Origin: a virus
Length of the DNA: 45,089 bases
Strand: one strand, 5' to 3'
IMG/VR virus record: IMGVR_UViG_3300027858_000001
Span: 1-45,089 of that record
Made by a program: the position numbers and the translations under genes. Of the stretch, positions 6,564 to 24,817 are shown in pieces. The notes below the pieces were generated by a model that was not told the DNA's origin, searched no databases, and was given only the letters and a program-made list of their open reading frames with translations. The stretch's first letter is position 1, and the number at the start of each line of letters is the position of its first letter.

Positions 6564-9149
6564 TTATTGTAACAGATCCATCGCATCCAACGGGTTATAG
6601 TCCTTTTCACTGATATCTCTGTTACCAGGTATCGCATCCAGATGTCCTCGCTGCACCTCCAGTTTAGGCACCTCATACGCGAACGTTAATGCTAACGCGT
6701 CATACCAGTCGGGTGACTTGCCAATGCGTTTCTTGACCATATCCTTTGGCTCAATCTTCAACCGCGTGCGCTTGTCGAACAGATAATCCCTGTTGATTAG
6801 CTCTCTCTCCAGCATCTCATCATCCACGAGAGCGCCGCCATTGAGGATCCATGTTCTGAATCGAAACGCCATTTCAGATGCTTTATCTGCGAACTTCTTC
6901 TCATCGTCCGCCTTCCACCCGAATCCCACATCAACGCAGTGATATCCCAGCTGCCTCAGCCGATCCCCAATGGGACCGCCCATCGCCCCCACGTCGAGGA
7001 ACGTTACATTGGGTTTGTGCCGGTCCAGCAGCATCGTAATCTTGGCCACCACGTTCATCGAGTCACGAGAGGTCTCACCGCTGATGCGATACGTCTGGTC
7101 AGACTTAGCATCATGGCCACGCCTGAAAACGATCATACAGTCGTCATCACCGCCACGCGCAAGGTCAACCCCACATACCAGTGGGTCATCGCCTAGATAG
7201 TGTCCTGGACCCCTCTCCATCGCTTCCTTGATGGCATCGCCTGGTATGTACTGCATCTCCGACGCACTGGGGAACTGACCACGTACACGTACCTTGAAGA
7301 AATCAGAATCTTCACCGTAGTCCTCGGCCCATTCCTGAATCAAGTTCTTGTTGGTCATCTTGCATGTACGGCTGTCTATCTGGCGAGTGACCCACCGGTT
7401 GCTGTTGCGGTAGAACGCATCATGGAACTCGCCACTCTTTCGAGTAGGGTTACCGAAGAGGAAATGCATTGGCTCCCCATCAGTCTGGCCACCACGCGCC
7501 ACCTCGTAGATGACATCCGGCACAGCCGATGCCTCATCGAACAGGAACCACGGCGTAGACTCTGCTGCGTGCAAGCCTGCAAATGCCTCTGAGTTCTCTT
7601 CTCTACACGTTTGAGCATCCACCCGCCACTCCGCAGGCAGTCCCTTGTGAGCCAGGCTGGTAGCGGTCCACTCGAACCAGTGGCCAGTGATGCATCGGCG
7701 ATGCCATTTTGCCAGCTCAGACCACGTTTTAGTTTTCAGCTGCTCCCCGGTGTTCGCGGTGACCACACCCTTCGACCGGGGTCGTGTGCTCATGATGAAT
7801 AGTGCGATCCACGAGCTTAGGGCGCTGTTATGAGTGACGATGAAGTCGTTAGCCAGATACAGATGATCGGCTGCTGCCACCTCAATGCACATGCCGTATT
7901 TCATACCGATTGGCTCAATGGAGTCTATCCACCGCTTAGTATAGCGCGACTCTACCTTGTCGCCGAGCATCTTCCGCTTATATGTATGGGTGAAGGGGTT
8001 CCATGTGCCGCCAAAGTTGATGGTACAGCGGTGACAATCTTTCATGGGTTCAGATCGCACACCGTCCTTAACGTAGAACGTTTTCTTCGGTGTAGGGCAC
8101 ATCATCGCCTTGCCACCGAGCGAGCGCACCATCCAGATCAAATCCTCTACCAGGTGCTTGGAGGTGCTGCTATAACCGATGCTACCGGCTTTAGTGACCT
8201 CACCATCAGTGTCGAGCATACCGGCCACCAGATCACGTCTCACAGCCTCTGAGTTGTATTTGTACACATCCGCAATGAACTTGGTGTCACAGGTGACAGG
8301 AGCCATGCCGCAGTCCTTGAGCGCGGTATACAGGCCGGGGAGGGTGGCGCTTGCGAACCCCGTCTCCAAAAAAAGGTTAGTTTCCGTGTTGGGGTGGTAT
8401 TTCATTCTCCCCCATATCTCAGGCCGTGATGAACCGATGACACCTGATATGCTTGATCCATCCCCCAACCACACACCAACACGATACGCATCGTAATGCA
8501 TGCCGTTGTACGCAAACTGCACTGGGTCGCATGTGGGAATCTCCCATTGCCGCGCCATCGCTTTACCATTGGGACGCTTGACCCCCGCCTCCAATAGCTC
8601 CTGCGTCTCCATGACGCGCCACTTGTCGATGCCCTTACGCCGTTCCTGTCGGCCCTTGACTGCCCACTCATGCTCACCGGCGACATCGGTGGAACTGCCG
8701 TCATCGAATGTCACCTTGTAGAACTGCTTCCTGCATCCGCGAGTTCCGGTGATTCGCGTGGGTGTCCCATCCTTACCGAACACATAATCTCCGACCTTCA
8801 AATCGCCCCATTTAATATCTTCCATACCTATCGCCTCTTGGTTGTTTGAGGCGGAAACTATTACACGTTTTGCGTCTTGACACAACCTTTCTGCTTTCCC
8901 GGTGCCATGTCCTGAAGCAGTGGCAAATCGGATAGGTACCGTAGGAGTAAAGCCGTCGAACCCCCTGTCCCGGATCTCATGTCCCCACTCAATCAGGAAC
9001 TCTTTTTGCCATTCATCGGGTCCTGCCTGCCCTGACAGCTCGTCCACGCCCCAATCGAAGGCGAACATGACCCAACCATAGGGGTCACCGTAGAAGTCCC
9101 CCATAGCGTCCAGCAGAGAGATCTCAACCCCGAGCGCATCGGTAGTCAT
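6564..9149 (-). CDS. terL: Terminase large subunit, interrupted by an intein (861-aa precursor, 505-aa extein)
   Basis: ATGA coupling to terS. Walker A GHGTGK|S is restored after removing aa 86-441. Walker B-like FLFDEAS. The C-terminal nuclease-type region contains VCGVDLARGGDD. Confidence 0.85.
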   Translation of the reverse strand: MTTDALGVEISLLDAMGDFYGDPYGWVMFAFDWGVDELSGQAGPDEWQKEFLIEWGHEIRDRGFDGFTPTVPIRFATASGHGTGKAERLCQDAKRVIVSASNNQEAIGMEDIKWGDLKVGDYVFGKDGTPTRITGTRGCRKQFYKVTFDDGSSTDVAGEHEWAVKGRQERRKGIDKWRVMETQELLEAGVKRPNGKAMARQWEIPTCDPVQFAYNGMHYDAYRVGVWLGDGSSISGVIGSSRPEIWGRMKYHPNTETNLFLETGFASATLPGLYTALKDCGMAPVTCDTKFIADVYKYNSEAVRRDLVAGMLDTDGEVTKAGSIGYSSTSKHLVEDLIWMVRSLGGKAMMCPTPKKTFYVKDGVRSEPMKDCHRCTINFGGTWNPFTHTYKRKMLGDKVESRYTKRWIDSIEPIGMKYGMCIEVAAADHLYLANDFIVTHNSALSSWIALFIMSTRPRSKGVVTANTGEQLKTKTWSELAKWHRRCITGHWFEWTATSLAHKGLPAEWRVDAQTCREENSEAFAGLHAAESTPWFLFDEASAVPDVIYEVARGGQTDGEPMHFLFGNPTRKSGEFHDAFYRNSNRWVTRQIDSRTCKMTNKNLIQEWAEDYGEDSDFFKVRVRGQFPSASEMQYIPGDAIKEAMERGPGHYLGDDPLVCGVDLARGGDDDCMIVFRRGHDAKSDQTYRISGETSRDSMNVVAKITMLLDRHKPNVTFLDVGAMGGPIGDRLRQLGYHCVDVGFGWKADDEKKFADKASEMAFRFRTWILNGGALVDDEMLERELINRDYLFDKRTRLKIEPKDMVKKRIGKSPDWYDALALTFAYEVPKLEVQRGHLDAIPGNRDISEKDYNPLDAMDLLQ
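7827..8894 (-). mobile_element. Class 3 (WCT) intein with a LAGLIDADG homing-endonuclease domain in the TerL P-loop (356 aa)
   Basis: Boundaries are GTGK|AERL... and ...FIVTHN|S. Block B is GEHEW, block F is YGMCIEV and block G is VTHN. LAGLIDADG motifs are VGVWLGDGSS and LVAGMLDTDGEV. Codon positions were checked against the DNA. Confidence 0.8.
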
Positions 9150-9598
9150 AGAAACGACACCTCATCATCGTCACCGGGTGAGGACAGCCTGGCTCGACCG
9201 CGTTGTATCCGCGCTGCCGCATCATCGGGGGTCAGCATGTTGACATCGTGTTTAGCTGATGCCAGTCCATCAACCAGCTTGTGCTTGTTCATCTCCGACA
9301 GAACGCGTGTGCTGACTCCCAGGTCACCCGCCTGTCGAGCCAGTAGGTGGTTGTCGGCCAGTTCAAGCAGTATCCACTCAGCGTCGATGTCAGAGCTTGC
9401 CAGACGACGCAGCAGGATCTTCTCGATCGCTTCCTTAACATTGTCTCGCTCCAACAGCCGTATCGCAATGGCATTACCGAATCCAACTCGCTCGGCAGCT
9501 CTACCGGGGTTGAAGTCCTTGGTGTACTCAATGACGAACGAGAGTTCTCTGTCATTCATCGCGGGCAATCCGTCAACCTTTATTTTTCGCATAGTCAT
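9146..9598 (-). CDS. terS: Terminase small subunit (Terminase_2-like, about 150 aa)
   Basis: The DRELSFVIEYTKDFNPGRAAERVGFGN block matches the small-terminase HTH region. Lies directly upstream of terL with an ATGA overlap. The start was placed at ATG 9598 because the longer ORF (to 9796) runs through non-coding tandem repeats. Confidence 0.7.
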   Translation of the reverse strand: MTMRKIKVDGLPAMNDRELSFVIEYTKDFNPGRAAERVGFGNAIAIRLLERDNVKEAIEKILLRRLASSDIDAEWILLELADNHLLARQAGDLGVSTRVLSEMNKHKLVDGLASAKHDVNMLTPDDAAARIQRGRARLSSPGDDDEVSFL

Positions 9599-9679
9599 CA
9601 ACCGAAATGAAAAACAGTGTACCACGGCCCTTTTTACCGGGTTGAAAACACCCCCTATTTGACCGGTTGGGAAGAGACT

Positions 9680-9724
9680 GTGTTCATTCATGTTGTGTTC
9701 ATTCATGTTGTGTTTATCCGTGTT
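9680..9724. repeat. Three tandem 15-mers (GTGTTCATTCATGTT x2 plus the degenerate GTGTTTATCCGTGTT) upstream of terS
   Basis: Read directly from the sequence: 9680-9694, 9695-9709, 9710-9724. Confidence 0.9.
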
Positions 9725-9943
9725 TCCTTGGCGGTTTTTGCGTTTTCCGATTACATTCAAGGTTTTTTTCACTAGTGCGAAAAACTCCCGAACCAATTTT
9801 TCAGACCCCTAAATCCACGCGAATCTTCTAATAGGTATACTGGTATTGGGTTACAGAGGTTTTTTCGGCAAAACGTCACAAATAAACACAGTGCCTCTAA
9901 GTCAAGCCCAGTAAGGGTTAGAGTGAGTTATCCACAATTTTGA

Positions 9944-10034
9944 AAACCACCAAGGACACAGTACGAAGCATTTTTTTTTCGCTCCTAAGTCGTTGATCTA
10001 CGGTAACATTCAGAAACTGTGTCCTTGGTGGTTT
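9944..10034. promoter_or_regulatory. 19-bp perfect inverted repeat with a 53-nt spacer in the divergent control region
   Basis: aaaccaccaaggacacagt (9944-9962) is the exact reverse complement of actgtgtccttggtggttt (10016-10034). The spacer contains a T9 run. Confidence 0.85.
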
Positions 10035-10100
10035 ACGTTCGCCTTTATTTGTTGTACATTTGCACAACATAACAATTGTCTCAAGTTGTTACACCACCAG

Positions 10101-10127
10101 CCGTCACAAAATCACGAACCGTCACAA
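10101..10127. promoter_or_regulatory. Direct repeats CCGTCACAA x2 (18-bp period), with a related ACGTCACAA at 9873-9881
   Basis: Exact 9-mers at 10101-10109 and 10119-10127 in the non-coding control region. Confidence 0.7.
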
Positions 10128-10154
10128 CATTTCTCAGCACAAAAAAGAAAAAAT

Positions 10155-10184
10155 TGGACATATTTCGATAAGGTGTTGTACACT
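10155..10184 (+). promoter_or_regulatory. Candidate early promoter (TGGACA-N18-TACACT) with an upstream A-tract
   Basis: -35-like hexamer at 10155-10160 and -10-like hexamer at 10179-10184, preceded by the A-tract aaaaaagaaaaaa. Lies about 35 nt upstream of the first early gene. Overlaps the TGTTGTACA motif. Confidence 0.3.
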
Positions 10185-10218
10185 TGTGTAACACCACATT
10201 CACACCAGGAGATTCAGC

Positions 10219-10452
10219 ATGTTTTTTTATAAAATCGACCCCCAGAGCAAACTGTTCGCCCACCTTGAAGCCGCAATCGAGGTCGCATTCAAAGAAGCTG
10301 ACAACTACTGGGCCCGCCGCAACATCAGCGCAGCTCGTGCAGTCCTGCAGGTCGCTGACGTTAAGAACGCGGTTAAGAACGGTATCCTCACCGAAGCCAG
10401 GGTAACCAAAGGGACCCACCAACTAGGTCTTATATTAAAGAGTATGTCATGA
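10219..10452 (+). CDS. Early hypothetical protein (77 aa)
   Basis: CAGGAGA RBS. First gene of the plus-strand arm. Confidence 0.6.
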   Translation: MFFYKIDPQSKLFAHLEAAIEVAFKEADNYWARRNISAARAVLQVADVKNAVKNGILTEARVTKGTHQLGLILKSMS

Positions 10453-10850
10453 AGGTCGGTGACATCTACGGTATGCGGCAAGTCCTCTCCATCAACAACG
10501 ACCGGAGCGTCAACACCCGGTGTGATGGAGACTACAGCCCCTCTTGCTTGAAGAATGCCCCCACCCGTCCAGCGGTATTGATTAACTCCACGGTATGTAT
10601 AAAGTGTAGGTACACTACCAGCTATAATAAAAGCCCCCGGCCACGCCGGACCGTTAAGAAACTGAGGGAAACAACCATGAAGCCAGACAGATCCTTAATG
10701 CTCATCGCGCTAAGTGCAATACAGATCGAGATCGCCGAGGTAACCGACCGGATGATCAACACTCAAAGCGAAAGCAAACGCAAGATGTACTTAGCTGAAG
10801 TATCCAATGCAGTCACCCGGTATAACCACATCAAAGGATTACTCGAATGA
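10449..10850 (+). CDS. Early hypothetical protein (133 aa). A separate 57-aa product starting at ATG 10677 is also possible.
   Basis: ATGA overlap with the upstream gene. An internal GAGGGAAACAACCATG and a TATAAT at 10623-10628 suggest an alternative internal start. Confidence 0.45.
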   Translation: MKVGDIYGMRQVLSINNDRSVNTRCDGDYSPSCLKNAPTRPAVLINSTVCIKCRYTTSYNKSPRPRRTVKKLRETTMKPDRSLMLIALSAIQIEIAEVTDRMINTQSESKRKMYLAEVSNAVTRYNHIKGLLE

Positions 10851-11011
10851 ACGTTATCACTAGCTACTATCAATGCAGCGCCTGTGCGTACGACTGGGCA
10901 GTTGACTGGGACGGCGACGACACATCCACCGGTGATATCGCCGATGAATGCCCTGAGTGCGGTCACAAGCCGGTACAACCCTACGAATGGGAGGAGGAGG
11001 TTAATGGATAA
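10847..11011 (+). CDS. Zinc-ribbon protein, 54 aa (CxxC...CxxC), absent from the ORF track
   Basis: ATGA overlap with the upstream stop. Translates to MNVITSYYQCSACAYDWAVDWDGDDTSTGDIADECPECGHKPVQPYEWEEEVNG. Its 3' end supplies the GGAGGAGGAGG RBS for the next gene. Confidence 0.55.
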   Translation: MNVITSYYQCSACAYDWAVDWDGDDTSTGDIADECPECGHKPVQPYEWEEEVNG

Positions 11012-11195
11012 CGAACAGCTATTAAAAGAGAACGCCAAGCTCAAAGAGCTGTGCCAATCGAACCACGACCACGCCTGTGAACTGCTCGCCATGCTAGACG
11101 AGGTGAAAAAAGACCGCGGGGTCATGGATAACGCTTTAAGTTACTGTCTATTTTTCGCCGCTGGCATAGTCACGGCACTATTGGTGATGCAATGA
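11004..11195 (+). CDS. Small coiled-coil protein with a C-terminal TM anchor (63 aa)
   Basis: ATG 11004 follows a GGAGGAGGAGG RBS. Translates to MDNEQLLKENAKLKEL...YCLFFAAGIVTALLVMQ. Confidence 0.55.
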   Translation: MDNEQLLKENAKLKELCQSNHDHACELLAMLDEVKKDRGVMDNALSYCLFFAAGIVTALLVMQ

Positions 11196-11458
11196 AAACA
11201 GCAATATTTGAACGCAGCACAAGCGCAGCTCGCCCATCAGTGATCGTCCTGTACCTGGGACCCGGTGATATCCGCGAGCTATCCATCAACCAGGCTCAGC
11301 ACCTGTATGAGTCGATCGACATGCAGCTCAGTCACATGGTAGTCATTGTCACTACCGGTGAAGGCGATACCCGCACGATGTCGATACCCGATGCCAAGCA
11401 CCTGCACCAGTCGCTTGAGGCGGCGTTAACCGACGAACGGGAGTACCGGGGTGGATGA
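11192..11458 (+). CDS. Early hypothetical protein (88 aa) with an internal two-fold repeat
   Basis: ATGA overlap. DIRELSINQAQHLYESIDMQL and DTRTMSIPDAKHLHQSLEAAL are related halves. Confidence 0.55.
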   Translation: MKTAIFERSTSAARPSVIVLYLGPGDIRELSINQAQHLYESIDMQLSHMVVIVTTGEGDTRTMSIPDAKHLHQSLEAALTDEREYRGG

Positions 11459-11485
11459 TTTATTTTAAATAATTTCAAATAACTC

Positions 11486-11513
11486 TTGCTTTGTTTAAAT
11501 AGTTGGTTATAAT
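11486..11513 (+). promoter_or_regulatory. Sigma70-type promoter TTGCTT-N16-TATAAT
   Basis: -35 at 11486-11491 and a perfect -10 at 11508-11513, with AT-rich upstream DNA. Lies about 30 nt upstream of ATG 11542. Confidence 0.5.
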
Positions 11514-11541
11514 GATCACATCAACACTGGAGAAAAACGAA

Positions 11542-11766
11542 ATGAATGGCACTAAACAGATGGCAACCAGAATCGTAAACGCAGAAGAATCCTTTATCAG
11601 CTCTGTGATGGATCAGTTTGACAAAACCTACGAAGAATCAGAAAAAGTTTTAGCAGTTTTCAAAAAAGCAAAGGCAGTAAGAATTGACCCTGTTGGTGGG
11701 CAGTTTAGACTTACATCTGGATTGTTTTGGGAAGCTGATGTTATCAATAACGCATTATCGTCATAA
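11542..11766 (+). CDS. Hypothetical protein (74 aa) in an AT-rich islet
   Basis: GGAGAA RBS. The start was chosen downstream of the promoter. By eye, the composition is more AT-rich than the flanking DNA. Confidence 0.55.
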   Translation: MNGTKQMATRIVNAEESFISSVMDQFDKTYEESEKVLAVFKKAKAVRIDPVGGQFRLTSGLFWEADVINNALSS

Positions 11767-11768
11767 GA

Positions 11769-11930
11769 ATGACCCCATCACAACAAGCAAAAAGCGTGGG
11801 GCTTAAGAACCTCACGCAAGTTAGTAAGATTACAGGCGTTAGCCTTAACACACTCATAAACTGGCACAGGGACAAACCAGAGCTGTTTTTGGTTGTTCTT
11901 CTTGGATGCCTTGTGAGATTGGAGACATAA
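11769..11930 (+). CDS. Small helix-turn-helix DNA-binding protein, 53 aa, absent from the ORF track
   Basis: Translates to MTPSQQAKSVGLKNLTQVSKITGVSLNTLINWHRDKPELFLVVLLGCLVRLET. LTQVSKITGVSLNTLINW is a classic HTH. Tightly packed between neighbouring genes. Confidence 0.6.
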   Translation: MTPSQQAKSVGLKNLTQVSKITGVSLNTLINWHRDKPELFLVVLLGCLVRLET

Positions 11931-11932
11931 CA

Positions 11933-12088
11933 ATGGATGACATGGATACACTCGAACAGTACGTGAAGATGTTAGAAAACCGAGTCGCATGGCTCACCAA
12001 GATGGAGGATAGCAGGGTCACTGCCCACATCATAAACGCTACAATTTTTTTCTGTCTAGGTGCGGGAATCGCCCGCGCCTTTGGATAA
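11933..12088 (+). CDS. Small protein with a C-terminal TM anchor (51 aa)
   Basis: GGAGA RBS upstream of ATG 11933. Ends ...HIINATIFFCLGAGIARAFG. Confidence 0.5.
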   Translation: MDDMDTLEQYVKMLENRVAWLTKMEDSRVTAHIINATIFFCLGAGIARAFG

Positions 12089-12104
12089 CCCAGGAGAACC
12101 ACCA

Positions 12105-12698
12105 ATGAAAAACGCAACTTTAATAGTTCTAGCCATGTTCACCGGTAGCGCAATGGCAGAGTACGACACGCCACAATCTTCGTCTTCTAGCTATGCTGCT
12201 GCTTTAGCTGCACAAGGCCAGGCACAACGGCAATCAATGGCTCAGACAGCCACAGGCGGGAACGCATCGGTGGTAAACGACCACCGGTCATCGGTATCGT
12301 TTAAGGATCGAGTGGCTCCGCCTACCCCAAGAACAGCGACCAATTGCATAAACGGCGTGTGCCGTGCGACGCCAGTTTTCACCATAAACGGCGGCCACGA
12401 TGAAGGCATGGGATCGGTTATAGGGTTTGGCGTCTCGGTTCCATTCGGCGGCGGCGGTAAGGCAACAGCCAGGGCGCTAGCCTACGCTGCTAAAAAGCAG
12501 GAAGAAGAGCATGTCATGGCCATAGAGGCGCACCAAGCTGAAATGGCGAGCATGTGCATGGTTCTCCATACGGTGCTAAAGGTTAAAACCGAGACTAACG
12601 CAGAGCTGTTCGACCGCTGCGCCGGCTTCGAGCACCACAAAGGCGCCATTGTTTCACACAGCGGCCACGGCGATCCTCGCCAGGTTTCACCGCATTAA
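12105..12698 (+). CDS. Secreted early protein with a cleavable signal peptide (197 aa)
   Basis: GGAGAACCACCAATG initiation region. The N-terminus MKNATLIVLAMFTGSAMA|EY is a typical Sec signal. Confidence 0.65.
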   Translation: MKNATLIVLAMFTGSAMAEYDTPQSSSSSYAAALAAQGQAQRQSMAQTATGGNASVVNDHRSSVSFKDRVAPPTPRTATNCINGVCRATPVFTINGGHDEGMGSVIGFGVSVPFGGGGKATARALAYAAKKQEEEHVMAIEAHQAEMASMCMVLHTVLKVKTETNAELFDRCAGFEHHKGAIVSHSGHGDPRQVSPH

Positions 12699-12713
12699 TT
12701 GGAGATCGACCAA

Positions 12714-13040
12714 ATGCCGATAATTAATATGGACGAATTGCACGAGACGACTAACAAACTGGAAGGGCCCACCATGCATCATAGAAAAAAGACAGCGGCC
12801 GATCTGGAAAGCGACCACAATGATTTAAGGTCTCTTTTGCATCTAGCAGATCACTTCATCCATGAATATAGCAGACACTACAACACGACGTTACTGACAA
12901 ATACCCCAGAAGCAAGTGATGTTGATGATGTGATTTTAAAACACAATCACAGGCGCAACATTTATATACAGCTAGCCGATAAAGAATCGGCAATAATCCT
13001 CGCGCTGGAGGAATGGCGCGCCAAGGAGCAGCAACCATGA
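12714..13040 (+). CDS. Early hypothetical protein, His/acid-rich (108 aa)
   Basis: GGAGAT RBS 8 nt upstream of ATG 12714. Confidence 0.5.
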   Translation: MPIINMDELHETTNKLEGPTMHHRKKTAADLESDHNDLRSLLHLADHFIHEYSRHYNTTLLTNTPEASDVDDVILKHNHRRNIYIQLADKESAIILALEEWRAKEQQP

Positions 13041-13195
13041 ACGAAGCCGGAGTAATCATCACACAATTCATAGTTCTTATGCAGCAGCAGGGGGTGTGGC
13101 CGTGTCATTTAATCCCCGGTGAAGAGCCACAACCGATGGCAGTCGAAGCCCTTGCCTCAATGAAGAACGAATATCTGGAGATCCACCATGAATAA
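13037..13195 (+). CDS. Early hypothetical protein (52 aa)
   Basis: ATGA overlap with the upstream stop. Confidence 0.4.
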   Translation: MNEAGVIITQFIVLMQQQGVWPCHLIPGEEPQPMAVEALASMKNEYLEIHHE

Positions 13196-13433
13196 GACCA
13201 CATTAATGTTACGACAGGAAATCAGGCAGCTGCAGGATGAGAAGACCAAACTTCAAACCACCTGCATCGACTTGAGAGCTGACATCTACCTGAAGGAAAG
13301 AATGGTTAAGTACCACCGCCGCAACACTGAGGAAGCGAATCAGCGGATGAGCACCCACATCGCGAAAGAGCGCCGCACAACTATATACCTGGTTGTACTC
13401 GCCGTCGTAGCTTGCGGTGCCACTTTCATGTAA
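13188..13433 (+). CDS. Coiled-coil protein with a C-terminal TM anchor (81 aa)
   Basis: GGAGATCCACCATG initiation region. Ends ...RTTIYLVVLAVVACGATFM. Confidence 0.6.
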   Translation: MNKTTLMLRQEIRQLQDEKTKLQTTCIDLRADIYLKERMVKYHRRNTEEANQRMSTHIAKERRTTIYLVVLAVVACGATFM

Positions 13434-13514
13434 AAACAGGAGTCAATTTATGGCTGACCAAACCGTGAAGTATAAGTTAACGAATAAAGTTGCACAACCA
13501 TAGGAGATACCACC

Positions 13515-14192: not shown

Positions 14193-14203
14193 GAGACACC
14201 ACC

Positions 14204-14416: not shown

Positions 14417-14427
14417 GAGACACCACT

Positions 14428-17377: not shown

Positions 17378-17380
17378 TAG

Positions 17381-17409: not shown

Positions 17410-17435
17410 TTGCTCCCCGACAACAGGAGATTAAA

Positions 17436-17988: not shown

Positions 17989-19244
17989 GTGCTCACGCAC
18001 GCCTTGGTCCATCGAATCACCGATGGCCTAACTGCCCCGGGTCAGTGAGAGAGGAGGCCGCCTACCCAGATGTAGCGGGGGCTGCTGCCATAGACGGTAC
18101 CGGGTCTCATCTGCTGCTGGAACTATGTTTGCAAAACAGTGTACGTGCTGACGCATACGAGTCTCAGGTCATCGGTGAAGGTCATGAAGACGCACCGATG
18201 GGATGGTTCGTCGACAAGGACCGTGCGATAAGAGTTCAGATGTGTCTTGACTACCTGGTTCGTCGTGTCGATGAGCTGAAGCATGAGTTCGGTGATGATG
18301 CAGTCATCGCCATCGAGTCGGAGAGCTTGTCCAACCCGGGGCAGCGTGCGGGCAGAGACGACTGGTGGGGTACGGTTGATATAACAGTCACCGTCACCGT
18401 TGATGGTAAGGTGATGTTCATTGAAGTCATCGATTATAAAGACGGGAGGATGTGGGTAAACGTCAGCGGCAACTCACAGCTTCAATCGTATCTGATCGGT
18501 AAAGTTAATGTGGCGGCATTCGATGACCGGATTGGTGGCAGGATCACTATTGTTCAGCCTAAAACCCGCACACCGGTTCGGTACGAGTTTATCTACTCAT
18601 CGGATCTGATCGAAGTTGAGCGAGGGCTGGTAGCAGCAGCAGCGGCAACGGATGACCCCAATGCTCCCCTGATACCCGATGACAAGTTAGGTAAAGGACA
18701 CTGCCACTGGTGCAGTCATAAAACCAACTGTGACGCGTTGGTTCAATCATTATCCAAAGGAATAGCAACCATGAAAGAGACCGATATGGAGTTGTTCTCA
18801 TCGCTAGAAACAGCGGTGGCAACTCTCAGTGAAATGCCTGGCGAACAGCTGGGACGGCTTGCCGATACAAAGCAAGCGGTGGAGAAGATCTACGAAAAGA
18901 TTCAAGTTGAAATTGAGCTGCGACTGGTACGTGGCGATGATGTCCCAGGATGGGACATGGGAGAGGGTCGAGGATCTCAGGTCTGGGCTATGGAGGATGA
19001 TGAAGTAGAAAAAGCCCTGCGCTCTCGACGGTTTCTCAAGAGTCAGATTTTCCCATCCAAACTAATATCGCCAGCTCAAGCGCTCAAACGTGAAGGGCTG
19101 ACCGAAACACAGATTAAAAAAATGAAAGAGGAGTTGATCGTTTTCAAAGCAGGGGCCCAACGTCCTGTCCAAGTACCGCGGGAGACGCAAGATCCATCAG
19201 TCATGTTTATGGATGCTGTCGAACCCGAAGTAAGTTTTCTTTAA
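17985..19244 (+). CDS. DUF2800-type PD-(D/E)XK (Cas4-like) nuclease (419 aa)
   Basis: The N-terminus ARLGPSNHRWPNCPGS and the C-terminal Cys cluster GHCHWCSHKTNC match the four-cysteine Cas4/AddB-type pattern. Sits in the conserved position upstream of DUF2815 and the polymerase. Confidence 0.75.
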   Translation: MSAHARLGPSNHRWPNCPGSVREEAAYPDVAGAAAIDGTGSHLLLELCLQNSVRADAYESQVIGEGHEDAPMGWFVDKDRAIRVQMCLDYLVRRVDELKHEFGDDAVIAIESESLSNPGQRAGRDDWWGTVDITVTVTVDGKVMFIEVIDYKDGRMWVNVSGNSQLQSYLIGKVNVAAFDDRIGGRITIVQPKTRTPVRYEFIYSSDLIEVERGLVAAAAATDDPNAPLIPDDKLGKGHCHWCSHKTNCDALVQSLSKGIATMKETDMELFSSLETAVATLSEMPGEQLGRLADTKQAVEKIYEKIQVEIELRLVRGDDVPGWDMGEGRGSQVWAMEDDEVEKALRSRRFLKSQIFPSKLISPAQALKREGLTETQIKKMKEELIVFKAGAQRPVQVPRETQDPSVMFMDAVEPEVSFL

Positions 19245-19262
19245 AATTAGGAGTTAATCACC

Positions 19263-19961
19263 ATGGCACAACATTTAGTTTATGGCGTAATCTCGTACCC
19301 CCATTTATTCGAGCCTCACACCAGTAATCCGAAGTATCCTAAGCGGTACAGCATTGACATAATGCTGCCCCCGGGGGATCCTCAAATAGCGATATTGCAA
19401 ACGGACATTGACCAGTCATGGGCTAATAAATCCCCGTCTGATCCTAACAAAAACGTGTATTGCTTGTCCCCCTACGACGACCGTAAGGACAATAATAGCT
19501 ATGACCCCCGGTTCGCCGGGTGGACAGTGTTCACCGCTAACGCCAAGGACACCTCTCAACCGGTTGTCGTGGACAAAGGCGGCATCCCCGTCCTTAACCG
19601 CAGTGATGTATTCGCGGGTGGAATGGCGTGGGTCCATGCGAGCATATTCGCTATTGATAATGGGGTGACCGCTGCGATTAATGGAGTGAAAGTCGCTGGC
19701 GTCGTGGGACCGGTAGGCCGCCTTGATGGTAAGCCTACGGTAGAGCAGATGTTTGCTGATACCAGTGTGCCTGCCGATGCGCCAGCGCCTCCCGCACCCA
19801 TGGCAGCGCCAGCGCCTCCTCCCCCTCCTACAGCGCCAGTGCATCAGATGACTGACGCCGCGCAGGGCACCTACGAGCAGTACGTAGCACAGGGATGGAC
19901 CGCCAATCAGATGATTGATGCTGGCCTCCTCGTGCCACCGGGGGCATCCCCCTCGTTCTGA
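19263..19961 (+). CDS. DUF2815-type ssDNA-binding-like protein (232 aa)
   Basis: VYGVISYPHLFEPH N-terminus. Pro/Ala-rich C-terminal tail. Followed by a terminator. Confidence 0.65.
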   Translation: MAQHLVYGVISYPHLFEPHTSNPKYPKRYSIDIMLPPGDPQIAILQTDIDQSWANKSPSDPNKNVYCLSPYDDRKDNNSYDPRFAGWTVFTANAKDTSQPVVVDKGGIPVLNRSDVFAGGMAWVHASIFAIDNGVTAAINGVKVAGVVGPVGRLDGKPTVEQMFADTSVPADAPAPPAPMAAPAPPPPPTAPVHQMTDAAQGTYEQYVAQGWTANQMIDAGLLVPPGASPSF

Positions 19962-19967
19962 TTAACC

Positions 19968-19996
19968 GGCCCCCTGGCAACGGGGGGCCTTTCATT
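19968..19996 (+). terminator. Rho-independent terminator or attenuator after the SSB-like gene
   Basis: Stem ggccccc(19968-19974)/gggggcc(19983-19989) with an 8-nt loop, followed by tttcatt. Confidence 0.55.
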
Positions 19997-20009
19997 AAGG
20001 TTAAAGCTT

Positions 20010-22025
20010 ATGACACCTGATTTTATATTCGGTGTGACGCCGGGTGATGTCGTCTACGATATAGAGACATACCCTAACGTTTTCACCATGAAAGCACTAC
20101 ACCACACCACCCGGAAACGCTGGACGTTCGAGGTCAGTGAGCGTCGTAACGACCTGGATCTGATTGTTCAGTTCATGAACACGCTAGCAGCCAATCAATG
20201 CCGAATGGTTGGTTTCAATAACATCGGTTTCGATTACCCGGTCATCCACATGATTCACCAGACTGGTGGCGCGTGGATCACTGTTGAGAACATCTACGAA
20301 AAAGCAATGGGGATCATCCAAGGTAATCGGGCTGTTCATACGGTGTGGGAGTCTGGCGGGGTTGTTCATGCGGTGTGGGAGTCTGACTGGGCTGTCCCCC
20401 AGGTAGATCTATTCAAGATCCATCACTTTGACAACATGGCAAGGTCAACCAGTCTGAAAGCTCTGGAGTTCGCCATGCGGATGCCCCGCATAGAAGATCT
20501 ACCGTTCCCAGTCGGTAAGCCACTGACCCCTGACCAGATTGATCCGCTGCTCGAGTACAACGAGTACGATGTCGATGCTACCGATGACTTCCTGACCGAG
20601 ACTAAAGAGATGCTGGCGTTCAGGGAAGAGCTTGCTAAGGACTACGGCGACGACGCGTTCATCAACTACAACGACACCAAAATAGGTAAACAGATTTTCA
20701 TCCGCCGCCTTGAAGGTCACACCCCTGGGTCATGCTATCAACGCATCAATGGTCGCCGTGAGCCGGTCCAGACGATCAGGCAAAACATTAAACTCAATGA
20801 TGTGATACTACCTATGGTTAAGTTCACGCATCCAGAAACCAATCGGATCTTGGACTATTTTCAGCAGCAGGTGATCACCGAAACCAAAGGTGTGTTTAAA
20901 AATGTGAGTTGCTCCATCAACGGATTCCAACTCGATTTCGGTACGGGAGGGTTACACGGGTCAATCAGTAACACAACGGTCACCAGTGATGATGAGTGGA
21001 TCATAGAAGATTGGGATGTTGCCAGTTACTACCCGAACCTCGCAATCCAGAATAACTTGCGACCTGACCACCTCGGCGACCTGTTCTGTCACATCTACGC
21101 TGACATGTATGAGCAGCGTAAACAGCATGCCAAAGGGTCCACGCAGAATGCTGCGTTGAAGCTCGGTCTCAACGGTAGTTATGGTGACAGCAACAACCAG
21201 TATAGTCCGCTGTTCGATCCGCAGTTCACGATGGCAATCACCATCAATGGGCAGCTGTTATTGTGCATGTTGATCGAAGCGCTGATGGTTGATCAATCGG
21301 TGAAGATGGTGCAAGTGAACACCGACGGACTGACCATCAAGTACCCGCGCGAGATACAACCATGGGTGCATCTCGTCACCAAGTGGTGGGAAGGTGTCAC
21401 CCGGCTGACACTGGAAGTTGCTGAATATAAATCGATGTATATCCGTGATGTGAATAATTACATCGCTGTCTATACCGATGGCTCGATTAAACGCAAAGGT
21501 GCGTACGAGCACAACAAGGAATGGCATCAGGACCCTGGTGCTCTAATCGTACCTATCGCAGCGGAGAAGGTCCTTGTCAACGGCGAGGATGTCAGAGAAG
21601 TTATCTGCAGCCACCCTGACCCCTATGACTTCATGCTCAGGGGCAAGGCACCAGGTGGGTCACACCTACGATGGGGAACCATTCGACAGCAGAAGTTATG
21701 CCGGTATTACATCAGCACCGATGGTGATTACCTCGAAAAAGTCATGCCACCTAAAGGCCCGCCTGGAGAGTACAAGCGTGCCAACAGCCTGACCGATGAT
21801 TACTATAATAGTGTGATGGCTGAGATTGGTAATGGTGTATGGGATGAACGGATCCACACCAAAAACAAAAGCGTGTATGAGACCAGAGTGACCGGATTAC
21901 ACACCGTCAATACTGTTCAGATGGCGAATAACATGAATGAGATGACGTTCGGTGATATCGATTACGAGTGGTACATCGCTGAGACTGTGAAACTGACAAG
22001 TCCTATTATGAGTAACGTGATATGA
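20010..22025 (+). CDS. DNA polymerase with family B-type motifs and a 3'-5' exonuclease domain (671 aa)
   Basis: ExoI VYDIETYPN, ExoII GFNNIGFDYPVI, ExoIII EYNEYDVDAT. Polymerase motif A DVASYYPNLAI, motif B KLGLNGSYGDS, motif C VQVNTDGL. Confidence 0.8.
   Translation: MTPDFIFGVTPGDVVYDIETYPNVFTMKALHHTTRKRWTFEVSERRNDLDLIVQFMNTLAANQCRMVGFNNIGFDYPVIHMIHQTGGAWITVENIYEKAMGIIQGNRAVHTVWESGGVVHAVWESDWAVPQVDLFKIHHFDNMARSTSLKALEFAMRMPRIEDLPFPVGKPLTPDQIDPLLEYNEYDVDATDDFLTETKEMLAFREELAKDYGDDAFINYNDTKIGKQIFIRRLEGHTPGSCYQRINGRREPVQTIRQNIKLNDVILPMVKFTHPETNRILDYFQQQVITETKGVFKNVSCSINGFQLDFGTGGLHGSISNTTVTSDDEWIIEDWDVASYYPNLAIQNNLRPDHLGDLFCHIYADMYEQRKQHAKGSTQNAALKLGLNGSYGDSNNQYSPLFDPQFTMAITINGQLLLCMLIEALMVDQSVKMVQVNTDGLTIKYPREIQPWVHLVTKWWEGVTRLTLEVAEYKSMYIRDVNNYIAVYTDGSIKRKGAYEHNKEWHQDPGALIVPIAAEKVLVNGEDVREVICSHPDPYDFMLRGKAPGGSHLRWGTIRQQKLCRYYISTDGDYLEKVMPPKGPPGEYKRANSLTDDYYNSVMAEIGNGVWDERIHTKNKSVYETRVTGLHTVNTVQMANNMNEMTFGDIDYEWYIAETVKLTSPIMSNVI
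20331..20390. repeat. In-frame 30-bp tandem duplication (26 of 30 identical) in the polymerase exonuclease domain
   Basis: Copies at 20331-20360 and 20361-20390 encode AVHTVWESGG and VVHAVWESDW. Confidence 0.9.
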
Positions 22026-22035
22026 GCACTTACTG

Positions 22036-22338
22036 ATGGGTGTCCGAGAGAATAAAGTGGAGACGTACCTGACCGATGAGGTCAGGAAACTGGGAGGCGA
22101 TACCCGTAAGTGGGTGTGCCCTGACCACAGCGGTGTGCCCGATAGAATTGTGGGGGTACCGGGGATCTCCCCTGTATTCGTTGAAGTGAAGACCGTGGAC
22201 GGCCAGTTACTACCAAGCCAGATACGAGAACTCCCACGACTCAGAGATGGTATGGGCCTTGAGGTGGTCACGGTATACGGACACTATCAAGTTGATCTCC
22301 TGATCATAGAACTAAAGGAACGATTAAATAATGCTTAA
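22036..22338 (+). CDS. VRR-NUC domain nuclease (100 aa)
   Basis: The SGVPDRIVG...VFVEVKTVDGQLLPSQ block matches the VRR-NUC catalytic core. Confidence 0.75.
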   Translation: MGVRENKVETYLTDEVRKLGGDTRKWVCPDHSGVPDRIVGVPGISPVFVEVKTVDGQLLPSQIRELPRLRDGMGLEVVTVYGHYQVDLLIIELKERLNNA

Positions 22339-24817
22339 CCCTGGCGACCTGTACGACTACCAAAAAGAGGCGGTGCTCCACCAGCTGTACAACCCTGAGA
22401 CAATGCTCTGGTTGCAAATGGGCCTGGGCAAAGAGCAACCGAACTCCGAACCATTGCTGACCCCCGACGGGTGGCGACCCCTCGGTGACATCGTACCCGG
22501 TGATAGTGTCATCGGTGCTAACGGTGAGCCGACCGAAGTGCTGAGAGTGTACCCGCAAGGGGATAAAGAAGTGGTCACTATTACCTTCGGTGACGGCACG
22601 TTCGCCCGGTGCGGGTGGGACCATCTATGGAACGTTAAGACGAACCACGATGTGATGTCAGGGAAACCGTGGAGGGTGATGACTACACGCGCAATCGTTG
22701 ATTCAGGGTTGGACCAAGGTAGTAACAGTAAATACCTGATACCAATCTGTAAGCCGGTGACCTACTCCCATCGCGACCTACCGGTGGATCCTTACTTACT
22801 GGGGGTCATCCTTGGCGACGGCACCGTATCAGAGGCGAGCGGCATAGTCATCTGCACCGATACCGAAATCGTGACTAAATGTGGAGCGTCATCTATCAAG
22901 CTGCATGAGACCTCTGCATATACCAGCTATGGGTACATCTCCCAAATCAAACAGCACATGCGTGATCTTAATTTGATGGGTAAGCGTAGCTGGGAAAAGC
23001 ATTTACCGGGAGAATACCTGCGAGCATCAATCAACCAACGGTTGTCGGTGTTACAGGGGTTACTAGACACCGACGGATCCCCCATGAAATCGGGAGGAGT
23101 GGAGTTCTGTTCCACCAGTGAGGATCTTGCGGACGCGGTGGTTGACCTGACCCAATCGCTCGGAGGGATCGCTCGCAAATCAGGTCCCAGGGTTACCCGT
23201 CATCAGGGTGGGCTAGGGCACCCGTCGTTCAGGGTTAATGTCAAACTGCCGCTAGATTTCATCCCGTTCACCTTAGCTCGAAAATTGGTACGATGGGTCC
23301 GCCCTACGAAGTACCAACCACATCGCCGCATACGGTCTATCAAGGTGACCGGCCACGAAGCGTCCACCTGCATCAGTGTTGCTGCTCCTGATAATTTATA
23401 CCTGACCCGTAACCATGTGGTCACTCACAATACCCCGATCACCCTGACAACCATTGTGGACCGTATGCGCGCCGGTCAAGTACAAAAGACCTTGGTGTTC
23501 GGTCCATTGAGAGTTATCCACGCAGTGTGGGAGAGAGAAGCCCGTAAGTGGGATCACACCCGGCACCTACGATTCAGTGTGGTCCACGGCAATAAAGCTA
23601 AACGACACCGTGCGCTGTTCCTGGACGCAGACGTATACCTGACCAACTATGAGAACATGAATTGGATCGCAGAATATTTAGACCACTATTACACCCAGCA
23701 AAACAAGCCGTTACCGTTCCAAATGGTTGTCTACGATGAAGTCTCTAAACTCAAGAACGCCACATCGTTGAGAATGAAAGGGGGCAACCGCGACCGTAAA
23801 AACAAACGCGGAGAATACACCCCGGTGAAGTACACCGGTTGGAGAAAGATCATACCTCACATCCCATACCGCACGGGGTTAACTGGCACCCCCGCAAGCA
23901 ATGGTTATCTGGATCTTCACGGGCAATACCTCGCGGTGGATAACGGTGATCGTTTAGGGACCGGGATCACTCGGTTCAAAGATTTGTATTTTGAGTCTGA
24001 CTATAACGGGTGGACTTATACTCCCACTGAAACCGGTCGTGCGATGATCGAACAGCGTATCCATGACATCACAATTAAAATGGATACCAAGGACTATTTG
24101 ACGCTACCGCCTACTACTTATACCAACATGATGGTGGATCTGCCGCCGAAAGCACGCAAGGCATACGATCAGATTGAAGCGGACATGTTCACCCAGCTGG
24201 ACTCAGGCAACGCGATCGAGCTGTTTACTAAAAACACTATCTCGAATAAATGCCTGCAATTCTGCAACGGCGGTGTTTACCTTGTCGCGGGAGAGTCCGA
24301 GTGGGAAGCAGTTCACGACGCCAAGCTGGAAGCGCTGGACGAAGTGATCGAGGAGGCAGCCGGTCAGCCGGTGCTATGCGGTTACTCGTTTAAATCAGAC
24401 GCTGCCAGGATCATGGCCAGATATAAGCGGATGCACCCGGTTAACTTAACCGCCATGCCAGCGAGTAAGACTCCAGGAATCATCGATAAGTGGAACCGGG
24501 GCGAGATTAAACTCCTGATCGGCCACCCTGCTTCTATCGGCCACGGTGTCGATGGTCTGCAGGATAGCGGGAGCATCCTTGCATGGTTTGGTCTACCGTG
24601 GTCATTAGAGCATTACCTGCAGATGAACCAACGACTAGACCGCAACGGACAGAAACATCCGGTATCAGTCATCAGGATACTCTGTAACAATACAGTCGAC
24701 CTGGCGGTAGCGGATGCACTGGAACGCAAGGCAGATGATGAGGATGGACTCAAGTCCGCACTAGAACGCTACCGTAAAGGGATCACCACCAATGACCTTG
24801 AGGTCAACTTTTATTAA
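22331..24817 (+). CDS. SNF2/DEAD-like helicase, interrupted by an intein (828-aa precursor, 495-aa extein)
   Basis: DYQKEAV. Walker A MGLGK|T is restored after removing aa 35-367. Also YDEVSKLKN (DExx box) and C-terminal QMNQRLDRNGQ (motif VI-like). Confidence 0.85.
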   Translation: MLNPGDLYDYQKEAVLHQLYNPETMLWLQMGLGKEQPNSEPLLTPDGWRPLGDIVPGDSVIGANGEPTEVLRVYPQGDKEVVTITFGDGTFARCGWDHLWNVKTNHDVMSGKPWRVMTTRAIVDSGLDQGSNSKYLIPICKPVTYSHRDLPVDPYLLGVILGDGTVSEASGIVICTDTEIVTKCGASSIKLHETSAYTSYGYISQIKQHMRDLNLMGKRSWEKHLPGEYLRASINQRLSVLQGLLDTDGSPMKSGGVEFCSTSEDLADAVVDLTQSLGGIARKSGPRVTRHQGGLGHPSFRVNVKLPLDFIPFTLARKLVRWVRPTKYQPHRRIRSIKVTGHEASTCISVAAPDNLYLTRNHVVTHNTPITLTTIVDRMRAGQVQKTLVFGPLRVIHAVWEREARKWDHTRHLRFSVVHGNKAKRHRALFLDADVYLTNYENMNWIAEYLDHYYTQQNKPLPFQMVVYDEVSKLKNATSLRMKGGNRDRKNKRGEYTPVKYTGWRKIIPHIPYRTGLTGTPASNGYLDLHGQYLAVDNGDRLGTGITRFKDLYFESDYNGWTYTPTETGRAMIEQRIHDITIKMDTKDYLTLPPTTYTNMMVDLPPKARKAYDQIEADMFTQLDSGNAIELFTKNTISNKCLQFCNGGVYLVAGESEWEAVHDAKLEALDEVIEEAAGQPVLCGYSFKSDAARIMARYKRMHPVNLTAMPASKTPGIIDKWNRGEIKLLIGHPASIGHGVDGLQDSGSILAWFGLPWSLEHYLQMNQRLDRNGQKHPVSVIRILCNNTVDLAVADALERKADDEDGLKSALERYRKGITTNDLEVNFY
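22433..23431 (+). mobile_element. Class 3 (WCT) intein with a LAGLIDADG domain in the SNF2 helicase P-loop (333 aa)
   Basis: Boundaries are GLGK|EQPN... and ...HVVTHN|T. Block B is WDHLW, block F is STCISV and block G is VTHN. LAGLIDADG motifs are LLGVILGDGTV and VLQGLLDTDGSP. Codon positions were checked against the DNA. Confidence 0.8.

Follow-up and report, generated by a model that had tools for sequence, protein, structure and literature searches.

Class 3 inteins are defined by the lack of an N-terminal nucleophile, together with a Trp at position 12 of block B, a Cys at F4 and a Thr at G5 (PMC3196547, PMC7664689). According to Tori & Perler 2011, as summarised in PMC3196547, they are monophyletic and a phage origin has been proposed for them. 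The insertion between the Lys and the Thr of a P-loop has been described as a 'classic' intein site, that of TerL1-a included (PMC5050341).

The window, i.e. the whole stretch of 45,089 nucleotides analyzed here (IMG/VR record IMGVR_UViG_3300027858_000001), is a tailed-phage genome of approx. 45 kb, whose assembly is complete with a 99-bp terminal repeat. A six-frame scan of the whole genome with the profile of the intein family found two copies, one in the gene for the terminase large subunit (TerL) and one in the gene for a SNF2-family helicase, and no third copy.

The mycobacteriophage TerL1-a inteins (Kelley et al. 2016, PMC5050341) interrupt terminase at the Walker A Lys|Thr/Ser just as the TerL intein of the window does, occur sporadically among related phages, and several of the mycobacteriophage terminase inteins are both splicing-competent and endonuclease-active (PMC5050341). 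However, TerL1-a belongs to another terminase lineage and host group, and the window TerL intein carries an N-terminal extension of approx. 12 residues; mycobacteriophage terminase inteins are about 31% identical to it over 93% of the length. The Snf2 intein of Deinococcus radiodurans (Brace et al. 2010, as cited in PMC3196547) resembles the second intein of the window in that the class 3 signature, in that secondary account Trp B12, Cys F4 and Thr G5, is found in a SNF2 helicase. The helicase intein of the Mycobacterium phages Alice and Colt (cluster C1 'HEL', HepA-like) shares 42% identity with the SNF2 intein of the window along its full length and also sits at the helicase P-loop (SGK|A...THN|S). 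In Colt, gp205 (Cas4/RecB-like) also holds an intein of this family, so that a phage genome with two homologous class 3 inteins is not without precedent; the second Colt copy, however, is not at a P-loop, whereas in the window the Walker A Lys|Ser/Thr is interrupted in both cases.

Transfer between P-loops has been described as well. The Anaeramoeba cluster 1 inteins (Gallot-Lavallee et al. 2023, PMC10710043) are class 3-like, with atypical N-terminal residues that are also found in phages; all of them interrupt the P-loops of proteins that are not homologous to one another, and they group together, from which the authors infer P-loop-to-P-loop transfer. That case concerns dozens of inteins and evidence of within-genome transfer in a eukaryote, in contrast to the distant, independently acquired pair of the window. 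In actinobacteriophages, class 3 LAGLIDADG inteins have switched from TerL to Cas4 by means of similar DNA at nucleotide-binding sites (bioRxiv 10.1101/2025.01.02.630785, where ±30 nt around the sites are compared as well). In that case, however, the donor intein is closely related to the recipient one and the sites have 10+2 bases in common, whereas the identity of the window inteins is 28–32% and their sites agree in the GxGK[ST] codons only. The P-loop site, the monophyly and phage derivation of class 3 inteins and host switching from P-loop to P-loop are therefore all already published.

Structure of the two intein genes

The terminase gene contains the following features. The gene for the terminase small subunit lies directly upstream of it (9146-9796).

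6564..9149, minus strand: TerL precursor gene, an open reading frame of 861 aa (505 aa after splicing)
8895..9149, minus strand: TerL N-extein, aa 1–85, with the Walker A end GHGTGK, aligned with the N-exteins of L001 and L002, which end in GHGIGK
7827..8894, minus strand: TerL intein, 356 aa, AERLC...IVTHN, with boundaries from the empty allele L001
8664..8672, minus strand: TerL intein block B His-Glu-Trp (putative catalytic His, and Trp B12 of the Trp-Cys-Thr signature)
8451..8480, minus strand: TerL intein LAGLIDADG motif 1, VGVWLGDGSS, acidic Asp145 retained
8196..8225, minus strand: TerL intein LAGLIDADG motif 2, AGMLDTDGEV, Asp230 retained
7878..7892, minus strand: TerL intein block F, MCIEV, with Cys336 as predicted class 3 nucleophile
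7827..7838, minus strand: TerL intein block G, VTHN, followed by Ser at +1
6564..7826, minus strand: TerL C-extein, beginning with the Ser (+1) that completes the GK|S P-loop

The features of the helicase gene are these.

22331..24817, plus strand: SNF2-family helicase precursor gene (Pfam SNF2-rel_dom, E 2.1e-11), 828 aa (495 aa after splicing)
22331..22432, plus strand: SNF2 N-extein, aa 1–34, with the end MGLGK
22433..23431, plus strand: SNF2 intein, 333 aa, EQPNS...VVTHN, family profile score 364 bits
22622..22630, plus strand: SNF2 intein block B His-Leu-Trp
22799..22828, plus strand: SNF2 intein LAGLIDADG motif 1, LGVILGDGTV
23054..23083, plus strand: SNF2 intein LAGLIDADG motif 2, QGLLDTDGSP (Pfam LAGLIDADG_3 27.0 bits, cut-off 22.5)
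23366..23380, plus strand: SNF2 intein block F, TCISV, with Cys313 aligned with the Cys of RCVEV in the class 3 intein MchDnaB1
23420..23431, plus strand: SNF2 intein block G, VTHN, followed by Thr at +1
23432..24817, plus strand: SNF2 C-extein, beginning TPITLTTIVD as does the post-GLGK sequence of the empty allele L006

The 3' ends of the two inteins exactly delimit the region 7827..23431, with 7827 belonging to the TerL intein (7827-8894, minus strand) and 23431 to the SNF2 intein (22433-23431, plus strand). The TerL intein splits GHGTGK|...THN|S and the SNF2 intein MGLGK|...THN|T. Intein-less TerL of L001 reads GHGIGK|SAITAW, and SNF2 of L006 reads MLWLQMGLGK|TPITLTTIVD, identical to the spliced protein of the window. 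Since the empty alleles (L001 for TerL; L005, L006 and L007 for SNF2) show an exact in-frame join at K|S and K|T, the intein boundaries are exact. The spliced TerL is 63% identical to that of L001 over 495 aa, and the spliced SNF2 product is 68–70% identical to L005 and L006 and 56% to L007.

By all sequence hallmarks, both inteins are assigned to class 3. Residue 1 is Ala in the TerL intein and Glu in the SNF2 intein, neither being a Cys/Ser/Thr nucleophile, whereas the Deinococcus radiodurans Snf2 intein begins with Ser. Of 109 family members, 78 begin with Ala and none with Cys. The block B motif H-x-W is present as HEW (TerL) and HLW (SNF2), its His and Trp being invariant in 98/98 family members, as are the block F Cys (MCIEV and TCISV, aligned with the catalytic Cys of MchDnaB1 RCVEV) and the T-H-N of block G. 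Each intein ends in His-Asn, followed by a Ser or Thr nucleophile at +1 (VTHN|S in TerL, VTHN|T in SNF2).

In both, a LAGLIDADG endonuclease domain is nested in a class 3 splicing domain, and the two LAGLIDADG motifs have kept their acidic residues (WLGDG and LDTDG in TerL, ILGDG and LDTDG in SNF2); in the family the Asp of motif 1 is conserved in 88/98 and that of motif 2 in 94/98 members. The TerL intein scores 321 bits with the family profile and 17.7 bits with Pfam LAGLIDADG_3, which is below the cut-off of 22.5. The Hint fold is supported by an AlphaFold model and Foldseek for the TerL intein and by sequence matches to 6RIX and 6BS8 for the SNF2 intein, these class 3 DnaB inteins being the solved structures closest to it by sequence. 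In detail, the TerL model has a pLDDT of 86.6 and a pTM of 0.87, with a pLDDT >90 in the endonuclease domain. Its best Foldseek match is PI-SceI (TM 0.66, E 2e-17, approx. 15% identity in the structural alignment); other bifunctional inteins match as well, and so do the mini-inteins gp41-1, 6BS8 and 6RIX; the predicted fold of the endonuclease domain matches PI-SceI and I-DmoI.

The N-terminus of the TerL intein is unusual in its extension of approx. 12 residues compared to most relatives, and model confidence is low for the first 22 residues or so. The possibility that a canonical block A lies upstream in a shifted frame was rejected: no other frame is open there, and the extension, which the L002 intein has too, is genuine. 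Likewise, a class 1 intein starting at Cys5 of AERLC was rejected, because the empty alleles join directly after GK and the relatives begin with Ala, Gln or Gly at the junction and have no Cys there.

Relationship of the inteins and their insertion sites

The original prediction held that the two inteins are paralogues, alignable over their whole length, at the same sub-site of two unrelated ATPases. BLASTP gave 100/336 identities (30%, E 5e-36) over the full length, splicing and endonuclease domains included, and a global alignment 32% identity, the overall range being 28–32%. All seven peptide pairs quoted in support are present and in register, and the interruption of GxGK|[ST] is exact when judged by the intein-less alleles L001 and L006. 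At the sequence level the ATPases are indeed unrelated, as the best BLASTP match between the spliced exteins has an E of 3.3. Nevertheless, TerL and SNF2 are both P-loop NTPases, interrupted at the structurally equivalent Walker A position. Shared ancestry of the inteins also stands, but close paralogy does not: the pair is less similar than each intein is to same-site relatives, which reach 44–59%. Judged from their sequences, the two inteins are homologous, yet not close paralogues.

In detail, the TerL intein is 44–48% identical over the full length to same-site terminase inteins in other genomes, its closest relatives being found in terminases of uncultured phages and Enterobacterales prophages, and 69% identical to a half-intein in P0004. 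The SNF2 intein shows 55–59% identity to other SNF2 inteins (59% for L004 and L159). The comparison with the nearest database inteins thus speaks against a close tie between the two. Among all pairwise identities in the family, that of the window pair falls at the 12th percentile and is the lowest between the TerL and SNF2 clades. As a relative of the TerL intein, the SNF2 intein comes 70th of 97, and in the opposite direction the TerL intein comes 97th of 97. In neighbour-joining trees (337 columns, with bootstraps) the window TerL intein was joined to P0009 in 96/100 and the window SNF2 intein to P0080 in 98/100 replicates, the TerL clade having a support of 75 and the SNF2 clade of 99. Each intein falls into a site-specific clade tied to its own host gene.

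Intein and extein identities are discordant: P0004 has an intein identity of 69% and an extein identity of 46%, P0009 of 44% and 70%, respectively. In the SNF2 extein tree the intein-bearing alleles are scattered, and L159 ranks 78th of 83. The exteins within each of the TerL and SNF2 clades are 35–70% identical, and the split between the TerL and SNF2 inteins is therefore older than the phage lineage.

At the DNA level, blastn detected no significant similarity between the two intein genes, their longest shared word being 11 nt, and no traces of gene conversion between them were found. The flanks of the TerL and SNF2 sites are identical in 14/24 positions at ±12 nt, all of them in the GxGK[ST] codons with background outside, and in 21/60 positions over ±30 nt; comparison of the two sites at both distances revealed no shared endonuclease target beyond the GxGK[ST] motif. 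The suggestion that P-loop-coding DNA acts as a portable homing site has been published before (PMC10710043; bioRxiv 10.1101/2025.01.02.630785).

Database searches with each intein return host families of the other (PhoH, dCTP deaminase), and host proteins of the family in the database survey comprise terminase, SNF2, PhoH, DnaB, DnaC-like, AAA_24, thymidine kinase and dCTP deaminase. The insertion sites have G[KR] at −2/−1 in 109/116 cases and Thr or Ser at +1 in 98/98 scorable ones.

Among related phages both sites are mostly empty. The survey covered the 80 best loci per gene and may favour intein-less matches, so that occupancy figures are rough; among the matches listed, 1/81 TerL loci and 2/84 SNF2 loci were occupied, and at least 18 near-complete relatives lack both inteins. 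No GenBank phage had a megablast match to positions 6000-25000, a scan of viral contigs with the primase protein for loci spanning the TerL and SNF2 genes gave no matches, and none of the viral contigs recovered was a relative with both genes together plus either intein.

Origin of the pair and alternative explanations

The data are very probably best explained by two separately acquired members of one old class 3 LAGLIDADG intein family, which uses G-[K/R]|[S/T] sites, mainly in Walker A motifs. As related phages are mostly empty at both sites, we suggest that two members of one promiscuous family invaded independently.

The original prediction offered two routes, movement between the two genes within the phage lineage or a common pool. 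The latter is borne out by the occupation of G[KR]|[ST] sites in many different proteins. In the former, one endonuclease would recently have cut the P-loop DNA of the other ATPase gene and the intein would have been copied across, for which the common sub-site, class and domain layout and the full-length homology could be quoted. Moreover, the central 24 bases of the two sites share 13–17/24 positions, close to the 15–18/24 between alleles of one site, comparable switches are documented elsewhere (PMC10710043; bioRxiv 10.1101/2025.01.02.630785), and inteins of DnaC/IstB-like ATPases, 47–50% identical, are found inside the SNF2-intein clade. However, the pair is less similar than 88% of all family pairs, each intein has closer same-site relatives in other genomes and is joined to a foreign neighbour with a bootstrap of 96 or 98, the intein genes show no DNA similarity, and the divergence of the exteins within the clades places the split before the lineage. 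Recent transfer is thus largely refuted by the present data, and we consider it very improbable. Even less credit can be given to a generic resemblance without specific common origin, on the grounds that any two Hint and LAGLIDADG inteins have blocks A, B, F and G and two endonuclease motifs. Several of the matched peptides are indeed canonical (LGDG, LDTDG, VTHN), but the similarity extends over 336 residues and includes the non-motif stretches WRVM-T, IP-C-PV, SLGG-A and PF-T. Class 1 LAGLIDADG inteins give much weaker matches: when the SNF2 intein is compared by sequence with the endonuclease domain of PI-SceI, the best E is 0.05, and the TerL model has approx. 15% identity to PI-SceI when aligned by structure. 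In addition, a single profile recovers both inteins, both carry the rare class 3 signature and each search returns host families of the other. Accordingly, what was found is mixed with regard to the original prediction: the inteins belong to separate site-specific subfamilies with flanks alike only in the GxGK[ST] codons, yet their similarity is not merely generic.

It is also conceivable, though unlikely, that one or both inteins are remnants which no longer home and perhaps splice poorly, and which are kept since exact deletion is rare. Inactive class 3 inteins are on record (PMC3196547), the TerL intein has an atypical N-terminus of low model confidence and a sub-threshold Pfam endonuclease match, and the G+C content of both inteins (0.53–0.54) matches that of the genome (0.52), suggesting long residence. 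On the other hand, neither intein has lost any catalytic splicing residue or either LAGLIDADG aspartate, the frames are open across 356 and 333 codons, the TerL endonuclease domain is modelled confidently and the N-terminal extension is conserved in L002. As TerL is indispensable to a tailed phage and this genome is complete, splicing must work if the phage is viable.

Proposed mechanism and significance

If two separately acquired, functional inteins are assumed, the precursors with their broken P-loops would not bind ATP. The block F Cys (Cys336 in TerL, Cys313 in SNF2) would attack the peptide bond between the Lys and the intein to form a thioester branch, the N-extein would be transferred to the Ser or Thr at +1, cyclisation of the terminal Asn would release the intein, and an O-to-N shift would restore GxGK[ST]. 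The freed intein would then act as a homing endonuclease: in co-infecting relatives it would cut those alleles of its host gene that lack an intein, and repair of the cut allele would copy the intein in. The common ancestry of the pair would go back to an ancient host-protein switch via the shared P-loop codons, not within this phage but long before it.

A further reading, to which we attach little probability, is that the TerL and SNF2 endonucleases keep an overlapping specificity for a GGN-AAA-[A/T]CN core and that the two ATPases are at the same time jointly gated by redox. Such an overlap would fit the central 24 bp of the two sites, which agree (13–17/24) nearly as well as alleles of one site do (15–18/24). 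If this is true, further P-loop genes of co-infecting phages could be targets of either intein, and the family would be a general driver of host-protein switching. The block F Cys of class 3 DnaB inteins is sensitive to oxidant and zinc, the mycobacterial ones being conditionally inhibited; by analogy, both ATPases could depend on such a sensitive Cys, so that packaging and replication/recombination could be gated together.

The window pair leaves current understanding unchanged. The strict G-[K/R]|[S/T] siting across many proteins lends support to the published view that inteins use nucleotide-binding motifs as stepping stones when they move between genes, and the known range of the intein family is extended to uncultured, non-actinobacterial phages. 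For annotation, the TerL and SNF2 genes should be marked as intein-containing, and not as encoding oversized or fused proteins. Since the inteins sit between the Walker A Lys and Ser/Thr, both ATPases would, as originally predicted, require splicing to regain the P-loop; in one phage, the packaging motor and a SNF2 helicase would thus both need class 3 splicing for their ATP-binding loops.

Two interrupted ATPase genes in a complete phage genome

Bases 1-99 and 44991-45089 are identical, an exact 99-bp direct terminal repeat, and the window represents a phage genome of ~44,990 bp, complete and assembled as a circle. It encodes a major head protein, portal, small and large terminase, primase, exonuclease, ssDNA-binding protein, DNA polymerase, SNF2 helicase and tail proteins. 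The DNA polymerase gene carries a 30-nt tandem duplication (20329-20395, plus strand; 2.2 copies, 86% match) that encodes AVHTVWESGG / VVHAVWESD, and the tail-gene region (30969-38960, minus strand) holds one ORF of 2663 aa, the C-terminal ~1,300 residues of which are 45% identical to L006, a related uncultured phage. Nested periodic repeats of 18/36/54 nt at 13658-13980, in the overlapping ORFs 13515-14192 (plus) and 13617-14306 (minus), may encode a hexapeptide-repeat type protein.

The terminase large subunit (TerL) and SNF2 helicase genes each contain an intein:

Interrupted genes and their inteins
6564-9149, minus strand: TerL ORF, 861 aa, ~350 residues over-long
7827-8894, minus strand: TerL intein, 356 aa; GHGTGK / AERLC...DFIVTHN / SALSSW
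22331-24817, plus strand: SNF2 helicase ORF, 828 aa, ~350 residues over-long
22433-23431, plus strand: SNF2 intein, 333 aa; MGLGK / EQPNS...NHVVTHN / TPITLT

Both pairs of limits agree exactly with the original prediction. Since uninterrupted alleles exist in related uncultured phages (GHGIGK-SAITAW for TerL in L001; for SNF2, GLGK-TPITLT in L005 and L006, GLGK-TIISLS in L007), the two insertions can be placed exactly between the Walker A Lys and the next Ser/Thr; the SNF2 junction peptide of L006 is identical to that of the spliced window protein.

Neither intein begins with a nucleophile (position 1 is Ala in TerL, Glu in SNF2); in each, block B contains His-x-Trp, block F a Cys (MCIEV in TerL, TCISV in SNF2), and the C-terminus reads Thr-His-Asn. 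Class 3 inteins, as published, are marked by Trp B12, Cys F4, Thr G5 and the absence of an N-terminal nucleophile (PMC3196547, PMC7664689) and, judged from their sequences, both window inteins bear this signature. Compared by sequence with solved structures, the SNF2 intein comes closest to class 3 DnaB inteins from M. chimaera (6RIX, 6RIY) and M. smegmatis (6BS8), with which its Trp in block B, Cys in block F and Thr in block G align. Two LAGLIDADG motifs with retained aspartates are found in both inteins; Pfam LAGLIDADG_3 scores above cut-off in the SNF2 intein and below it in the TerL intein. As modelled by AlphaFold (pLDDT 86.6, pTM 0.87; poor confidence only in the first ~22 residues), the TerL intein matches the bifunctional inteins PI-SceI, TliVMA and PI-PfuI, and its modelled splicing domain also gp41-1 and class 3 DnaB inteins. 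Its N-terminus (8814-8894, minus strand; AERLCQDAKRVIVSASNNQEAIGMEDIKW) is atypical and ~12 residues longer than in most relatives, an extension common to the window and L002 TerL inteins.

Relationship of the two copies

That two homologous inteins occupy the same P-loop sub-site, as originally predicted, was confirmed. The TerL and SNF2 inteins are 30% identical over 336 residues (BLASTP, E 5e-36), an alignment that takes in the splicing part as well as the endonuclease part, and 32% identical in a global alignment. Generic intein similarity is far weaker than this: the sequence match of the SNF2 intein to the endonuclease region of PI-SceI has E 0.05, and a structural alignment of the TerL intein model with PI-SceI gives ~15% identity. 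A family profile detects only these two copies in the window genome (321 bits for TerL, 364 for SNF2), and no similarity was detectable between the spliced TerL and SNF2 exteins (best E 3.3).

The prediction had further taken the two as paralogues, the pattern suggesting an intein that moved between two P-loop genes, either within this phage lineage or from a common pool. Family-level ancestry, the common P-loop site and the predicted dependence of both proteins on splicing hold; movement between the two genes in this lineage does not. Each intein has much closer relatives in other genomes, at the same site and in the same kind of protein. In database searches, the TerL intein is 44-48% identical to those of other terminases (P0001, P0002, P0009, L002) and 69% identical to that of P0004, over the half-intein that P0004 has, and the SNF2 intein is 59% identical to the SNF2 inteins of L004/P0080 and L159. 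When relatives are ranked in an alignment of 98 family sequences, the partner comes 70th of 97 for the TerL intein and last (97/97) for the SNF2 intein; the identity of the pair falls at the 12th percentile of those between any two family members, and at the bottom of the range seen between the clades. In neighbour-joining trees, bootstrap support is 75/100 for a terminase-intein clade, 99/100 for an SNF2/DnaC-like clade, and 96 and 98 for joining the TerL and SNF2 inteins to their foreign nearest neighbours. The two intein genes have no similarity as DNA; no word longer than 11 nt is common to both. The window inteins are not close paralogues; no intein moved between the TerL and SNF2 genes in this lineage, and the two copies are old, separate acquisitions.

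Target sites and family hosts

The DNA flanking the two sites was compared for a shared endonuclease target, as proposed at the outset. Within 12 nt on either side of the junction, the reconstructed empty sites share 14/24 bases (background 6.0 ± 2.1), all in the Gly-x-Gly-Lys-Ser/Thr codons; within 30 nt, 21/60 match. In the central 24 nt, cross-site identity (13-17/24) is near that between same-site alleles (15-18/24). Outside this core same-site alleles are still ~70% identical and cross-site similarity is gone, so that essentially none extends past the GK[ST] codons, an outcome that the original prediction had named as counting against it.

Of the 116 database members whose N-terminal junction is intact, 109 have Gly-Lys (75) or Gly-Arg (34) directly before the intein, and the residue after every scorable C-terminal junction is Thr (63) or Ser (35); residue 1 is mostly Ala and never Cys. 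Hosts include terminases, SNF2 helicases, PhoH, DnaB, DnaC/IstB-like and AAA_24 ATPases, thymidine kinase and dCTP deaminase, with PhoH containing family inteins at two sites, the P-loop and MRGR/T. As non-P-loop sites in PhoH (MRGR/T; P0026-P0034, P0085-P0121) and dCTP deaminase (EGK/SS; P0138-P0168) resemble the P-loop at the junction, the data suggest that a Gly-[Lys/Arg]/[Ser/Thr] core is what the family endonucleases recognise. In DnaC/IstB-like ATPases (P0083, P0084) the P-loops hold inteins with 47-50% identity to the SNF2 intein of the window, hence the host protein was switched via the P-loop within the SNF2-intein clade. Three bacterial proteins of 261-328 aa (P0062, P0125, P0195; Thalassospira, Deinococcus, Micromonospora), annotated as free-standing 'LAGLIDADG family homing endonuclease', match almost the full intein and may be inteins called as separate ORFs.

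Family inteins are frequent in GenBank phages, where 556 and 854 records match the TerL and SNF2 inteins, for example mycobacteriophage terminases and helicases, Salmonella phage terminases and the PhiPA3 SNF2 helicase. Like the window, Mycobacterium phage Colt (L167, MK359359.1) has two family inteins in two genes (6711-7769 and 26575-27549). One lies at the P-loop of helicase gp179 (SGK/A...THN/S); the other follows ELK in gp205, annotated 'HNH endonuclease', and by this position looks like an insertion at a Cas4/RecB-like site.

Distribution and significance

Scans of IMG/VR with extein alignments listed 81 TerL and 84 SNF2 loci from syntenic phages. Among these best loci only L002 carries the TerL intein and only L004 and L159 the SNF2 intein, fractions that are rough since a limit to the 80 best loci per gene may favour uninterrupted genes. 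The two listings have in common at least 18 near-complete genomes (32-47 kb) in which neither site is occupied. SNF2 alleles with the intein are scattered across the extein tree, and identities to the window diverge between intein and extein (69% vs 46% in P0004, 44% vs 70% in P0009). This patchiness and discordance suggest homing and turnover rather than simple vertical descent. In the related contig L004 (9369-9409 and 17204-18163), the intein-bearing SNF2 gene is in two ORFs, with an apparent frameshift right after the intein, and a reverse transcriptase (RVT_1) is encoded as well.

Kelley et al. reported that class 3 inteins from different host proteins of phages and bacteria are related, and that 161 mycobacteriophages hold 229 inteins (PMC5050341). 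P-loop insertions are known from many ATPases, including HepA/SNF2, PhoH and terminases (Novikova et al. 2016, PMC4760082), and Tori & Perler, as cited in PMC3196547, put forward the view that class 3 inteins form a monophyletic group derived from phages. Gallot-Lavallee et al. (2023, PMC10710043) reported that non-homologous proteins carry class 3-like inteins in their P-loops, from which they inferred P-loop-to-P-loop transfers, and a 2025 preprint presents nucleotide-binding sites as a route by which phage class 3 inteins switch exteins (bioRxiv 10.1101/2025.01.02.630785). Because of these papers, movement between P-loop genes is an already published model; what the window adds is an instance in which both copies are old, separate acquisitions.
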